This document shows, piece by piece, positions 10,846 to 19,261 of a stretch of 29,483 nucleotides of DNA (positions are counted from its first letter, which is position 1; each line of letters starts with the position of its first letter). The DNA comes from a virus. Lineage: Monodnaviria; Loebvirae; Hofneiviricota; Faserviricetes; Tubulavirales; Inoviridae. The notes beneath the pieces are model-generated. The model was given only the letters and a program-made list of their open reading frames with translations, searched no databases and had not been told where the DNA came from. The DNA is taken from the IMG/VR virus record IMGVR_UViG_2851976983_000002; one strand, given 5' to 3'. Both the position numbers and the translations under genes were made by a program.

Positions 10846-10947
10846 ATGCTCACGACTGAATTTTTCGTTCTTATTCTCTTTGGTGCTGTGCCAGTGCTGA
10901 TATTTTCACTGGCTTTTATTGGCGGAGTCATTACGGGAAGGCGTTAA
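10846..10947 (+). CDS. gVII-like small hydrophobic protein, copy 2
   Basis: Identical copy of 2576..2677. Confidence 0.45.
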   Translation: MLTTEFFVLILFGAVPVLIFSLAFIGGVITGRR

Positions 10948-15644: not shown

Positions 15645-16442
15645 GTGTGTGATGATGTCCGTCAGGACATGTAAGGCGGCATGATGAAGTTTCATGTGAC
15701 GCAGATGTCAGCCCGCCGAAACCGGGGAGAGATGACAGAGCAGCAGGAAACAGCGCAACGCGCCGCCTGCCAGACCGCCTTTTAGCGGGCAGCCAGCGAG
15801 ACGAGCGGCGCAAGACGGGAGTCGGACAGTCATTGATGAAGCCGTTCGATGGAATTGATGACTGACAGGCCGTCTTTTTGAGCCGGAATTTTCAAACAGA
15901 GGTCCTGATGTGTTATCGGCGATAATGTTTTACTCGTTACAATTTGCGCACTCTGTTATGTGGCAGTGGACTGGCACATACTGAGGCGGACATAACGTTG
16001 GTTTAGACGCGTACATCCCATAATTACCTGGATTTTCCAGTGCGCCTTATAACTTTCCCAGGTTATAGGGCGTTTTCTTTTTTACTTCCCGGTGTACCCA
16101 CACGAACATCTCAATTCAGCCATCACAACGCCAGAGGCCGTCTTTTGAGCCGGAATTTTCAACAAGAGGTCTGCAGGTGTTATCCGCCGTAATGTTTACT
16201 TGTTATAGTCTTGCTGCTCATCTATGTGAGGGTGAGTAGGTAGTAGACACATAATGTCAGTTAAGGCCGTATATCACGTTGATTGAGACGTAAATTACGT
16301 TGACTGAGACGGATATTTCATTGTATCCATTTCTGGATTTTCCGGGACGCTTTATAACTTTCCCAGGTTATAAGGCGTTTTCTTTTTTTACTCCCGGGTT
16401 TGTGTACCCACACGGACACCTTAATTCAGCTACCACAACGCC

Positions 16443-16535
16443 AGTGCGCATAATGTGTTACACGTTATGTTGAAAAGGCCGCTGCGATACTCTCCACCGC
16501 AGCGGCCTTTTTACACATAACGTCATTGTGCGCAC
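16443..16535. other. attP-like double dif site at the A/B junction
   Basis: Same sequence as 8173..8265; A and B sequences diverge immediately after ...cgcactggcc (16540). Confidence 0.7.
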
Positions 16536-16643
16536 TGGCCCTCAGTTCTCCGGTCTGAATTCGTCGCCCTGATAAGCAGGTTTTAGCAATGGGAAAACAG
16601 GTGGCTCCTGTTATCGATGCAGAATGTCCTGACCTCAGCCGTA

Positions 16644-16720
16644 CCGCACCGCAGCGAGTGGAGGCGGAGAAGGACGACGGGAGGAGGACGCCGACAACGA
16701 CAGGAGCGAGGGCGGTGCGG
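16644..16720. other. Conserved purine-rich element in variant B, closed by CCGCACCGC/GCGGTGCGG (copy at 24666..24742)
   Basis: Same core as A 262..301 but with a different closing inverted repeat (16644..16652 with 16712..16720). Confidence 0.4.
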
Positions 16721-16831
16721 CTGTTGTTCAGACAGACAGCGACGCCCCCGAAACCATCGTTTAATTTTTAACCGCGGAGCGGTTCGGGAGTTCTGTTACA
16801 CCCGATATTTACCGCGGATTCCCGCGATCCT

Positions 16832-17107
16832 TTACTGATTTCCTTTCTCTTTTGCTAGCCTAATCCACATTGCCTTTAGATCCTTGTCCTTTTCCTTTTG
16901 GGCATTGACTGTGGCTATGATTTCTATAGGGTCTATTTTTAAGGCATTGGCTATTTTTAGGCACTTATCATGTCCAATTAAAGCCGTATTATTCCTTATT
17001 TTTGTCATGCTTTGTCTTGGTATTCCGAGATATTGTGCTGTAGCATAGTCGCTTTGCAGTTTTAACCTCTCTTTTAGCTCATCGATGTAATCTTCTAACC
17101 ATTTCAT
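16832..17107 (-). CDS. HTH-type transcriptional regulator (about 91 aa), divergent from rep; repressor candidate
   Basis: HTH-like segment ATAQYLGIPRQSMTKIRNN; start trimmed to the internal ATG with GAAGGGAAC upstream because the 181-aa track ORF would overlap the rep start and promoter. Confidence 0.55.
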   Translation of the reverse strand: MKWLEDYIDELKERLKLQSDYATAQYLGIPRQSMTKIRNNTALIGHDKCLKIANALKIDPIEIIATVNAQKEKDKDLKAMWIRLAKEKGNQ

Positions 17108-17245
17108 ATTTTTGTTCCCTTCGTCTTTTTCCATATTATGTTGCGGTGTAACTTCACTTGCTACGTAACATTTATGTTGACAGTAACATGTCAATGTTCT
17201 TATAGTAACATCTATGGTTACATCTAACTTTTTCATGTTCGTTTT
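17108..17245. promoter_or_regulatory. Divergent promoter/operator region of variant B (copy at 25130..25267)
   Basis: 18-bp perfect palindrome TTGACA-gtaaca-TGTCAA (17177..17194) giving -35 hexamers on both strands; TATAGT 18 nt downstream; four TAACAT repeats (about 17166, 17184, 17205, 17218). Confidence 0.5.
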
Positions 17246-18373
17246 ATGAATTTTGACTGGTTGAAAGCTCGGCAGGACTTTGGTTTTGAACTGCCCCACA
17301 TCAGTAATGTGGGTTATCAGCGCATACACCTTGAAACGGGAGAAGTTTCTTCTCTTTCTCAACCTGTTTTTGTTCATGAAGGATCTTTCAGTGACGTTGT
17401 TTCTATCAAAATTCGTGGTTCTGAACTGACAATGTCCGGTAATCCGTCGCGGTGGGGAAAGCTGGATAACGTTTTTGGATGTGCCTCAATGGATGAATGT
17501 TTTGATGTTTTTAACCAGATCTTGCGCTCGCTTGGGTTGCCGGAGTTTACCAAAGGGCGTCGACGAAAACTTCGTCAATGTGCAGATGGTTCTTACTGCG
17601 GTCATGTATGGGATGGCGCTCAGGTCATTGAGACACATGTGAACAGAAATATTGCTGTTGGTCCGGGTAATGAAAACAGTGTAATACGAGCGCTTTCTAT
17701 GCTGACTTTTCGTCGGATGAATGGAAATCTACGACCTAATGGTCAGACTGCTGATTTCATGACGGATGGGGGGAGAGTTAATTACATGTATCCAAGTATT
17801 TATAATAAAAGTCATGATCTCCTTATCCATTCAATGAAAAAGACAGAGAAAAAATTTGGTACTGATAGTGAAGAATATCGCTACCTCCAGAAATTGTATG
17901 AGTTCCTGCTTATATATGGTGTAATCAGGTTTGAACTGAAATTAAAAAGACGTTTTCTGAAGAAACAGAATCTTACTGACTGGGGTTATGCTGATTTTGA
18001 AGGTGAGTTATATCCTTTATTAAATGAGTTTGTTGATATACATAAAAAAACGAGACCTTCTACTATGGATGTAAAAAGTGTTGCTTCAGAACTTTTAGAG
18101 AAAAAGATAGTTGACACTGTCAGGGCTGCGCACACAACTGCTTTTTATGCGTATTCATGGGCTAACGGCGAGAGATTTGACTTTTCTAAACGACAAGTTC
18201 AGGAGCATCGTGCCAGACTTCGTAAAATTGGTATAGATATCGCGCGGGAATACAATGTTTCTCTGTTTCCTGGCGTCATCATCAGAGAAATTAAAGAGAT
18301 TGAGTTTAATGATGTTGTTGTGAAACCAGATTTTTATCGTGAGCGTAAAGCAGAACTATATCTTGTTGCTTAA
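17246..18373 (+). CDS. Replication initiation protein of variant B (375 aa; family uncertain, not alignable to the variant A Rep by eye)
   Basis: First large gene downstream of the divergent regulator, followed by a gpV-like gene; contains IRFELKLK segment. Confidence 0.55.
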   Translation: MNFDWLKARQDFGFELPHISNVGYQRIHLETGEVSSLSQPVFVHEGSFSDVVSIKIRGSELTMSGNPSRWGKLDNVFGCASMDECFDVFNQILRSLGLPEFTKGRRRKLRQCADGSYCGHVWDGAQVIETHVNRNIAVGPGNENSVIRALSMLTFRRMNGNLRPNGQTADFMTDGGRVNYMYPSIYNKSHDLLIHSMKKTEKKFGTDSEEYRYLQKLYEFLLIYGVIRFELKLKRRFLKKQNLTDWGYADFEGELYPLLNEFVDIHKKTRPSTMDVKSVASELLEKKIVDTVRAAHTTAFYAYSWANGERFDFSKRQVQEHRARLRKIGIDIAREYNVSLFPGVIIREIKEIEFNDVVVKPDFYRERKAELYLVA

Positions 18374-18385
18374 GGAGATTTAATT

Positions 18386-18748
18386 ATGGCTAAGATAACG
18401 CTTGATACCCGTGACCTTCTGATTGTTGTTGTAGAAGAAGGGGATGATGTTATTGAAGTAAATACTTTTTCCTATCAGGAAAAAGATAAGAATGGTGAAC
18501 CAGTATTTAATGATGATGGTTCAAAAAAGATGATTGAGCGTGAATCACGTATACAGAAGATGTTATTAGAGCGTGGTCGCGAGCGTATTGAAATCGTTGT
18601 TCCAGTTAATGAGGGGCAGCCACCATATTCGGTTGGTCGTTATCTTATTCACCCTTCATACTTCAAAGTCAATGAACGCGGAGCCATTAATACAGCACGT
18701 CCATGGGATTTGACATTTATCCCTCTTGATTCAAAAGATGTAAAATAG
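18386..18748 (+). CDS. ssDNA-binding protein (gpV-like)
   Basis: VVPVNEGQPPYSVGRYLIHPSYFKVNERG aligns with the recalled M13 gpV segment ITLDEGQPAYAPGLYTVHLSSFKVGQFG; AAGGAG Shine-Dalgarno. Confidence 0.7.
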   Translation: MAKITLDTRDLLIVVVEEGDDVIEVNTFSYQEKDKNGEPVFNDDGSKKMIERESRIQKMLLERGRERIEIVVPVNEGQPPYSVGRYLIHPSYFKVNERGAINTARPWDLTFIPLDSKDVK

Positions 18749-18830
18749 TAATAAATCTCTTTTTTTATTATTCTGGCAGTGGCGTTTTCTGTCATATAAG
18801 ACGCCATTGTGTTTTGTGAGGCGTTCTAAT

Positions 18831-19136
18831 ATGAACAGTAAAGCAGAGCCTGTTTTTGTAATAAATGTTTATCCTCCAACGTATGGGCGTGACGCTATAA
18901 ATCTTCTTTGCGATTATTACAAAGAGGCTCATAAGTCATTGATTAATTCAGATACGTCTGCTGCCGAAATTATTCTTCATGACTGCGTGCGACGGATTCA
19001 ACTCATCATTAACAATGAGAGTATAAAACTGGATTCTTATGAATTAACAAAATTACTCAGGCTTCATCAGGTATGCGTTGAACTTTTACAACAGTACTGT
19101 TTGCAGGGATTTTCTCCTGAAACAGAAAAACTGTAA
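18831..19136 (+). CDS. Hypothetical protein (101 aa), variant B-specific accessory ORF between gene V and gene VII homologues
   Basis: Intact ORF with GAGG upstream of the second ATG; no counterpart in variant A; no motif recognised. Confidence 0.45.
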   Translation: MNSKAEPVFVINVYPPTYGRDAINLLCDYYKEAHKSLINSDTSAAEIILHDCVRRIQLIINNESIKLDSYELTKLLRLHQVCVELLQQYCLQGFSPETEKL

Positions 19137-19159
19137 TTATCATTCGCCTTAATGAGATT

Positions 19160-19261
19160 ATGTCAGTAGCGGAATTTTTCGTTCTTATTCTCTTTGGCGC
19201 TGTGCCAGTGCTGATATTTTCACTGGCTTTTATTGGCGGAGTCATTACGGGAAGGCGTTAA
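19160..19261 (+). CDS. gVII-like small hydrophobic protein (33 aa)
   Basis: MSVAEFFVLILFGAVPVLIFSLAFIGGVITGRR; the A/B homology breakpoint lies within its first codons. Confidence 0.45.
   Translation: MSVAEFFVLILFGAVPVLIFSLAFIGGVITGRR

Follow-up and report, generated by a model that had tools for sequence, protein, structure and literature searches.

In pathogenic E. coli and related Enterobacterales, filamentous prophages are often met at dif, and the small unannotated genes of such prophages are the usual place of host-modifying or life-cycle-control functions. Among described systems, the UPphi viruses form dif-integrated, often tandem prophages in which Ypfphi-like gII and gV genes are joined to IKe-like virion genes (PMC7307601). 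Two other filamentous phage systems have described small proteins: RstC is an antirepressor of RS1, a satellite filamentous phage of Vibrio cholerae (PMC3545932), and PfsE of Pseudomonas Pf4, which is 30 residues long, mediates exclusion and has PilC, a protein of the type IV pilus, as its binding partner (PMC8764522). In this study we describe ORF101, an open reading frame (ORF) of 101 codons in the 29,483-nucleotide stretch of inovirus DNA held as IMG/VR virus record IMGVR_UViG_2851976983_000002, the whole of which we call the window. In the window four filamentous prophages follow one another in tandem (A-A-B-B), two of type A with a period of 8270 nt and then two of type B with a period of 8022 nt, and ORF101 stands in the B prophages between the gene for a long-form gene-V-type single-stranded DNA (ssDNA)-binding protein (SSB) and gVII. 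We find that ORF101 is the gene of a small cytoplasmic three-helix protein from a rare, unannotated family, and we compare its position, divergence and predicted fold with those of related loci, which are given L numbers below.

The first copy of ORF101 is a 306-nt coding sequence (CDS) on the plus strand at 18831-19136. Its product of 101 aa (11.6 kDa, isoelectric point 5.5) is identical to the protein (MNSKAEPVFVINVYPPTYGRDAINLLCDYYKEAH...) that an earlier reading of this DNA, made from the sequence alone, had quoted for the ATG ORF at this place. The second copy, at 26853-27158 (+) in the second B-type prophage, is identical to the first at the DNA level. A block spanning 18749-19159 has exactly two occurrences in the whole window, at 18749 and 26771, and these are the B copies only; the sequence-only reading was thus correct in assigning the ORF to variant B and not to variant A. 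A GAGG Shine-Dalgarno sequence, as read from the sequence, is found at 18818-18821 (+), 9 nt 5' of the ATG. A mechanical ORF list extended the same frame to a TTG at 18807, a start that we disfavor because that codon falls within a hairpin and it is the ATG instead that has the GAGG. E. coli JNE112863 (L001), 98.5% identical over 875 nt, has the same 306-nt CDS in its RefSeq annotation. GC content at third codon positions (GC3) is 0.30 for ORF101, 0.32 for the replication initiator gene (G2P) and 0.28 for the SSB gene (range 0.28-0.32). The protein has a grand average of hydropathy (GRAVY) of -0.13, and Kyte-Doolittle analysis with 19-residue windows, in which the maximum mean is 0.85, gives no transmembrane segment, as the sequence-only reading had also held.

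Database searches indicate that the family to which ORF101 belongs is very narrow. A profile search of 5.8 billion proteins returned four clusters only. Members P0001 and P0002 are 93-94% identical to ORF101, and P0003 and P0004, of 76 aa and 38% identity, were recovered with E = 1e-26 to 1e-28 in the profile search and with E = 5e-6 in an exhaustive HMMER search of 1.84 billion representatives. Further members were sought by synteny, reading the contexts of B-type SSB homologues, and include a 106-aa protein at L032 5381-5701 (Smith-Waterman z = 15) and an 85-aa protein at L033 2445-2702 (z = 8.9), with 0 of 2000 shuffles reaching the score in either case. Variant C, from E. coli JNE23-011 (L002), has a 94-aa homologue that is 99% identical to the B protein. 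Nucleotide identity between B and C starts at 18869, inside codon 13 of ORF101, and the C-type ORF keeps its frame across this recombination joint by means of a different six-residue N-terminus that has its own ATG and an AAGGA ribosome-binding sequence. As homologues with 25-38% identity keep the frame at the same genomic position, ORF101 is coding and not a chance ORF, and we regard it as nearly certain that it is a real gene of a family found in the slot after the SSB gene. The family is also present in four other inovirus lineages, C, M, L032 and L033, so the earlier description of the ORF as specific to variant B does not hold.

ORF101 and its relatives have no match in Pfam, PHROGs, NCBIfam or PADLOC, the last being a library of defence systems and not of anti-defence proteins, which bears out the earlier remark that the product has no recognizable motif. 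A Pfam search with eight family members at E <= 10 gave one match only, DUF7938 at E = 0.09, and a sequence-profile search of the PDB with ORF101 gave none. Searches by tblastn with ORF101 returned no match (E <= 1) in the 50,697 phage records of INPHARED and none in the 72,556 plasmids of PLSDB; tblastn of INPHARED with the L032 and L028 slot proteins and the B-type SSB also returned no match, nor did megablast of the whole B unit against phages. ORF101 was not found in the 185,579 species-representative genomes of GTDB, and IMG/VR and the JGI metagenomes added one and two loci, respectively, all of known member types. A literature search on the JNE strains found nothing. An assignment to the core Ff/IKe genes (II, X, V, VII, IX, VIII, III, VI, I and IV) was rejected, as there is no match to a core family and the product, unlike pVII and pIX, has no transmembrane segment. 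The sequence-only reading had named membership in a conserved core inovirus family as a finding that would speak against an accessory gene; the family is instead narrow and is absent from A and from two other variants, D and E. The Prokaryotic Genome Annotation Pipeline (PGAP) used for RefSeq leaves the C-type ORF unannotated in JNE23-011, as it does gVII and gIX (L002 5984-6268 and 6292-6554), and small inovirus genes are under-annotated in these records. Additionally, a 9613-bp circular plasmid record, pJNE25-005_3 (L003), looks like a related inovirus in its replicative form; it is 93% identical over the ORF-gVII region, has an ISEc31 insertion and contains many fragmented CDSs, possibly through sequencing errors.

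The family is one of dif-integrating enterobacterial inoviruses, and the position of its members is fixed. Each lies directly 3' of a gene for a 115-123-aa SSB, which in turn follows the gene for a G2P of ~375 aa (fragmentary in L033), an arrangement seen in the window, in L002 (C), in L006-L012 (M) and in L032 and L033. The spacing between SSB and ORF ranges from an ATGA overlap in the M type (L006, L012, L021) through 10 nt in C and 23-24 nt in L032 and L033 to 82 nt in B. Both L012 and L032 are integrated beside hipBA, as is the E-type prophage in E. coli O8:H8, which points to E. coli-like hosts. Four more loci, L028-L031, combine a long SSB with a soluble protein of 116-119 aa in the same slot. 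These proteins match the ORF101 helix-1 pattern R-x2-[ILV]-x6-Y and its C-terminal motif (LCVDLMNQNCEHGF versus VCVELLQQYCLQGF); the B protein and the L028 slot protein align with z = 7.4, over 21 residues only. Comparison of the L028-L031 slot family with that of ORF101 gives hhalign E = 4e-4 at a probability of 34%, and another profile-profile comparison (A4 versus A5) gives 7%. In a collinear MAFFT alignment of 12 sequences that includes the L028-L031 type, R20, Y30 and L75 are invariant. Judged from these sequence likenesses, homology of the L028-L031 slot proteins to ORF101 is probable but unproven. None of the long-SSB cassettes examined had an empty slot. Several lineages have a second ORF for a small soluble protein of 78-106 aa between the slot protein and the membrane coat genes. 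These second ORFs form two families, one at L032 5701-5949 and L033 2699-2986 and the other at L028 2322-2633, L029 2307-2627 and L030 4315-4551, so that the region from SSB to coat genes behaves as a small accessory island.

Prophages that lack ORF101 have a different cassette to the left of the same virion genes. Variants A, D and E have virion genes as in B and no ORF101. Variant A has a left cassette composed of a Rep_trans gII and a 113-aa gV-like gene (2224-2565), which is unrelated to the B cassette, and its gVII (2576-2677) begins 10 nt after the gV-like gene, as the sequence-only reading had noted. Homology between A and B resumes only at 19172, inside gVII, and the two have in common a structural block, ~97% identical, that runs from a point within gVII, at 10858 in A and 19172 in B, to past gIV. 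The A and B cassettes are unrelated and ORF101 lies within the swapped block; the earlier proposal of an ORF inserted at a gV-gVII junction has to be given up. Variant D encodes a 667-aa replication endonuclease and a 141-aa protein, and variant E encodes G2P, a repressor and a short Ff-like SSB of 90 aa. Both D and E keep the last ~20 nt of ORF101 together with the spacer to gVII, with the 141-aa protein of D ending in EKL and a stop, which suggests that cassette replacement took SSB and ORF together. Upstream of gVII, D, E and B have GAAAA(A)CTGTAATTATCATTCGCCTTAATGAGATTATG in common. Overall, at least five different replication cassettes, A to E, are combined with a single UPphi-type virion module, which extends from gVII to gIV and is 95-100% identical, and the cassette joints cluster within ~300 nt around the start of gVII (window 10858/19172; L002, L004, L005 and L022-L027).

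Although its position is fixed, the sequence of ORF101 is not tied to that of its neighbors. Between B and M, G2P and SSB are each 98% identical and the ORF is 38% identical, with virion genes that are mostly unrecognizable (secretin 45%); nucleotide identity in this pair is 96.5% as far as 18745, where the SSB gene ends, and there is none after this in the ORF or coat-gene region. Between B and L032 the values are 97% for G2P, 85% for SSB and 29% for the ORF, and g3, g6 and g1 have no detectable similarity. Comparison of B with C gives the reverse picture, with G2P at 55%, SSB at 42%, the ORF at 99% and g6, g1 and g4 at 98-99%. For L032 versus L033, G2P is 54% (partial), SSB 86%, the ORF 44%, g6 79% and g1 68% identical, and for L030 versus L031, G2P is 97%, SSB 100%, the slot protein 53% and g1 30% identical, with no similarity in g6. 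ORF101 thus follows neither flank. Between the window and L014, ORF101 has 6 nonsynonymous and 1 synonymous substitutions, as against 20 and 58 in core genes (G2P, g6, g1 and g4; Fisher p = 0.003), and is therefore less constrained than the core genes, although the 6-7 substitutions among close alleles are too few to separate relaxed from positive selection. The replacements among close alleles are conservative and fall mostly in the tail and the loop between helices 1 and 2. From these comparisons, ORF101 has the appearance of an independently recombining unit in a fixed slot that is either weakly constrained or fast-evolving.

AlphaFold2 modeling from a five-sequence alignment predicts helices at residues 20-38, 42-60 and 69-89, with a predicted local distance difference test (pLDDT) score of ~87-93 for this block and predicted disorder at residues 1-15 and 94-101; the N-terminal tail as a whole, residues 1-19, is taken as disordered. 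A single-sequence model agrees with that based on the alignment. Residues 20-89 are thus modeled as a three-helix TPR/MIT-like bundle, which is a generic fold. Eight residues, R20, Y30, N61, D68, S69, Y70, L75 and R77, are invariant in eight family members, and the predicted helix topology would bring R20, N61 and D68-Y70 together at one pole of the bundle, as a possible binding patch. Foldseek searches of the PDB and BFVD with the model gave no significant match (E > 0.2). A sub-threshold Foldseek match to an 'ANR family regulator' (probability 0.33) was judged to be noise, and a conserved cysteine motif in the family was rejected since the cysteines are not kept in L032 and L033. The model has three-helix, TPR-like geometry similar to that of peptide-binding MIT/TPR domains such as those of Vps4, katanin, spartin and the N-terminal region of USP8. 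The matched proteins are eukaryotic or archaeal, identity to ORF101 is only 5-17%, there is no Pfam match and Foldseek gives E > 0.3. As three-helix bundles recur by convergence, we view this likeness as resemblance and not as membership.

The B replication cassette is organized as an operon headed by G2P with a divergent repressor gene. The repressor, a helix-turn-helix (HTH) protein of the Cro/CI type, is encoded on the minus strand at 16832-17134 (phrog_638, phrog_4441 and weak Pfam HTH matches) and is 98-99% identical to the products of 91-aa and 100-aa genes called in L006 and L008. Its ORF is listed as 181 aa, and as relatives are called at 91-100 aa (start at 17134 or 17107) the 100-aa form was taken. 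The gII promoter region (17135-17245, +) contains a computed promoter-like site, TTGACA-18-TATAGT at 17177-17206, with an 11/12 match in a sigma-70 scan. This site sits among at least four GTAACAT/ATGTTAC repeats, read from the sequence, which are probably operators for the divergent repressor. Downstream on the plus strand are the 375-aa Ff-type initiator G2P (17246-18373; PF05155, PF05144, phrog_702), the 120-aa SSB directly 5' of ORF101 (18386-18748; PF02303, Phage_DNA_bind, phrog_1199) and, beyond ORF101, a gVII-like membrane protein of 33 aa (19160-19261; Kyte-Doolittle value 2.81), which is the first gene of the UPphi-type structural block. Apart from the gII promoter, the sigma-70 scan gave no strong promoter-like site on the plus strand upstream of ORF101, and no terminator was called between ORF101 and gVII.

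Two hairpins lie between the SSB gene and ORF101. An AT-rich hairpin predicted by folding overlaps the SSB stop codon (18747-18772, +). The second, the GGCGT...ACGCC hairpin that the sequence-only reading had pointed out, is real and larger than described there, with a 13-bp stem and a 9-nt loop at 18776-18810 (+) followed by GUUUUGUG. The 101-nt hairpin region folds with -24.7 kcal/mol (z = -3.1), a stability reached by 0 of 200 shuffles. The 13-bp hairpin falls within 18746-18868, a segment that matches neither M-type nor C-type phage; it is absent in C and M and is invariant in B-type relatives, which makes covariation uninformative. The scan did not call it a terminator, and it is possibly a weak attenuator or an RNA-stability element, so that in B the hairpin and the GUUUUGUG after it may damp or stabilize the downstream message. 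A view of the ORF101 region as an RNA element was rejected, since Rfam gave only sub-threshold noise. The AT-rich promoter of its own that had been proposed for ORF101 was not found: there is no plus-strand sigma-70-like site between 18749 and 18830, only one on the minus strand (18795-18767). ORF101 also does not have the makeup of a moron (own promoter, terminator and foreign composition), given that it lacks a promoter and a terminator and that its GC3 is like that of SSB and G2P. What remains of the earlier view as a whole is an accessory-type, soluble protein with no motif; insertion, an own promoter and restriction to B do not remain.

As a working model, we tentatively favor, at well short of even probability, ORF101 being a protein-binding adaptor that is made during productive replication and acts with the long SSB in ssDNA handling. 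Since it lies on the same strand after gII and gV, with a repressor-controlled promoter and none of its own, ORF101 would be made when the prophage is derepressed and replicating. The conserved polar residues R20, N61, D68-S69-Y70 and R77, which the predicted topology places at one pole of the bundle, would form the binding contact. The target would be the ssDNA-handling step run by the long SSB, such as its loading onto progeny strands or its removal from them, or a regulatory activity of SSB. ORF101 would not be a secreted or membrane effector. This reading is suggested by the co-occurrence with long SSBs over several virion backgrounds, by tight or overlapping spacing and by joint loss with the cassette, and the same slot in four more lineages fits a recurrent component of a replication cassette better than it fits random cargo. 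A stronger version, which we consider somewhat unlikely, is that the slot protein would be an obligatory partner of long-form gene-V SSBs and a so far unrecognized fourth component of replication and ssDNA sequestration besides pII, pX and pV in a clade of temperate enterobacterial inoviruses, with interchangeable alleles; such alleles would explain the viability of recombinants with mismatched flanks. Several points weigh against an adaptor acting with the SSB. The main objection is that alleles of the ORF do not co-vary with those of the SSB, as the B-C, B-M and L030-L031 identities demonstrate, so a specific contact would need to involve the conserved core of the SSB only. The substitution pattern is less in keeping with a housekeeping cofactor than with weak constraint or an arms race, and the fold is uninformative given Foldseek E > 0.2 for both the PDB and BFVD. 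Furthermore, the link to long SSBs is drawn from ~9 lineages that perhaps have shared ancestry, and adjacent genes are co-inherited. Homology of the second slot family (L028-L031) is unproven, at a profile-profile probability of only 7-34%.

In a possible though doubtful alternative, ORF101 is a fast-evolving conflict gene that would bind a protein of the host or of a competitor phage and serve, for example, superinfection exclusion, anti-defence or host modulation; in effect this is the host-acting cargo gene of the sequence-only reading. In favor of it, ORF101 is an ORFan, with its four clusters in 5.8 billion proteins and its absence from the GTDB representatives, INPHARED and PLSDB; it is also polymorphic for presence among phages with 98-99% identical virion genes, diverges faster than both flanks with a ratio of nonsynonymous to synonymous polymorphism (pN/pS) above that of core genes, recombines as an independent unit and has a generic protein-binding fold. 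PA0720 of Pf4 is the ssDNA-binding gene of that phage. The gene next to PA0720, PA0721, encodes PfsE and mediates exclusion (PMC8764522). However, a gene without its own promoter or atypical composition would be silent in the repressed lysogen, and ORF101, which in several lineages is translationally coupled to the SSB gene or follows it closely, fills the slot in every long-SSB cassette examined, has no PADLOC match (though that library covers defence, not anti-defence) and, as a soluble protein of 101 aa, is unlike the 30-residue PfsE. Control by the repressor is central to another alternative, an RstC-like antirepressor that would be co-transcribed from the repressed gII promoter and would bind and inactivate the divergent HTH repressor, with positive feedback to virion production. 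Antirepressors of the RstC type bind and aggregate their repressor, which derepresses the promoter. Here the position corresponds to that of rstC in RS1, after rstR-rstA-rstB (PMC3545932), and ORF101 is small and soluble; B and C have a divergent HTH repressor, M-type and L032 repressors are 99-100% identical to that of B, L028 has a divergent upstream gene of similar size, and operator-like repeats are present at the B gII promoter. Yet those B, M and L032 repressors of 99-100% identity are accompanied by ORFs of 25-38% identity, the C repressor has no detectable similarity to that of B while its ORF is 99% identical, variant E has a repressor and no ORF, and there is no sequence match in the phage collection. 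The lack of co-variation between ORF and repressor type in these sequences weakens the anti-repressor or immunity function suggested in the sequence-only reading, and we consider an antirepressor unlikely.

The location of ORF101 directly before gVII would also suit an assembly-initiation adaptor of the structural module that hands SSB-coated ssDNA to pVII/pIX and the pI-pIV machinery. The ORF travels with the structural block between B and C (99%, with g6, g1 and g4 at 98-99%, G2P at 55% and SSB at 42%), and to the right of SSB the B-M pair has recognizable similarity only in the secretin (45%) and the ORF (38%). We nevertheless judge this role very unlikely, because the same structural genes serve in A, D and E, where there is no ORF, A being of the UPphi901 type that is shed as virions (PMC7307601), and because the slot proteins of L028 versus L031 and L030 versus L031 are 52-53% identical where g6 has no detectable similarity and g1 is ~30% identical. 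Highly improbable is the idea that ORF101 is not a functional gene at all but a chance ORF or a remnant in decay, with the RNA hairpin as the real feature of an AT-rich spacer. A pN/pS near 1 among close relatives (on 6-7 substitutions only), the unannotated C-type copy and a hairpin that is significant on its own speak for it, but frame and position are kept at 25-38% protein identity in four further lineages (z = 9-21), an in-frame replacement start bridges the recombination joint in C, and a Shine-Dalgarno sequence and a confident AlphaFold2 fold are present. The hairpin, moreover, is absent in C and M, which keep the ORF, and Rfam gave sub-threshold noise only.

Several other features of these elements were observed. 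An identical palindrome of ~100 nt is present at each prophage junction (8170-8270, 16440-16540 and 24462-24562). It has outer arms AGTGCGCATAATGTG...TTATGTTGAAA with an inverted copy, and an inner GC hairpin GGCCGCTGCG...CGCAGCGGCC followed by T5. The outer arms are similar to the XerC and XerD arms in the dif site of E. coli, and by analogy the palindrome has the look of a folded ssDNA attP of the CTXphi kind and/or a terminator; a search for exact dif, allowing up to 3 mismatches, found no match in the window. The palindrome is kept at 88-100% in types A, B, C, E and M and in L030, L032 and L033. A tie between ORF101 and this attP-like palindrome or the mode of integration was rejected, as none of the types A, B, C, E and M lacks the palindrome. 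In the B units a GC-rich segment (16541-16770, also 24563-24790) lies between the palindrome and the repressor gene. It contains overlapping ORFs of 60 and 73 aa (16589-16771 and 16617-16838) that have no Pfam or PHROG match, and within it 16636-16723 is 87% identical to 8506-8596 of A. The most divergent structural gene among close relatives is gIII (19774-21099), at 81-91% versus 98-99% for g6, g1 and g4, in agreement with the UPphi report, which describes gIII as hypervariable (PMC7307601). The variant D prophage of E. coli UTME-13 encodes, on the minus strand upstream of the replication gene (L004 296-661), a 121-aa 'TolA C-terminal domain' protein that could be a decoy for the g3p-TolA interaction, giving superinfection exclusion. 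Beside the B-type prophage of E. coli JNE112863 are two tandem 3.7-kb elements (L001 1-7300), each with a II/X-family replication protein (349 aa), a 91-aa SSB, two hypothetical genes and no virion genes, an arrangement that by analogy resembles the RS1 satellite.

What is new here is a small-protein family within a known kind of element, and the novelty is modest. ORF101 now belongs to a defined family that has a fixed slot, a confident predicted fold, a conserved polar patch and a partner hypothesis, namely the long SSB. The joining of a single UPphi-type virion module to at least five replication cassettes matters for the taxonomy and annotation of inoviruses. Were ORF101 a required cofactor of the long SSB or a component of a switch, an extra step would be added to the Ff-based scheme of inovirus replication, and were it an exclusion or anti-defence gene it would bear on competition among prophages in tandem arrays.

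Comparison with the described systems shows where ORF101 is similar and where it differs. Like RstC, it is a small soluble protein encoded directly after an ssDNA-binding gene (rstB in RS1), in an initiator-headed operon with a divergent repressor. In contrast to RS1, which is a satellite, ORF101 is found in full-length phages, and it does not co-vary with the repressor; tblastn (E <= 1) in the 50,697 phage records and the Pfam and PHROG searches gave no match pointing to RstC homology, which is indirect evidence with no alignment to RstC itself. PfsE and ORF101 are both products of accessory genes that follow an ssDNA-binding gene, precede the coat genes and are dispensable for the core virion, but ORF101 differs in being a 101-aa soluble three-helix bundle (as predicted) with no transmembrane segment and a GRAVY of -0.13. 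With respect to UPphi901, one of the Lineavirus-like enterobacterial inoviruses that integrate at dif, the structural block of the window and the Rep_trans-type gII and gV of variant A fit the published description, and the novel genes h1-h5 of that phage lie elsewhere, after gIV and next to dif (PMC7307601). The B cassette of repressor, G2P, long SSB and ORF101 is, in contrast, outside the published UPphi901 gene set.

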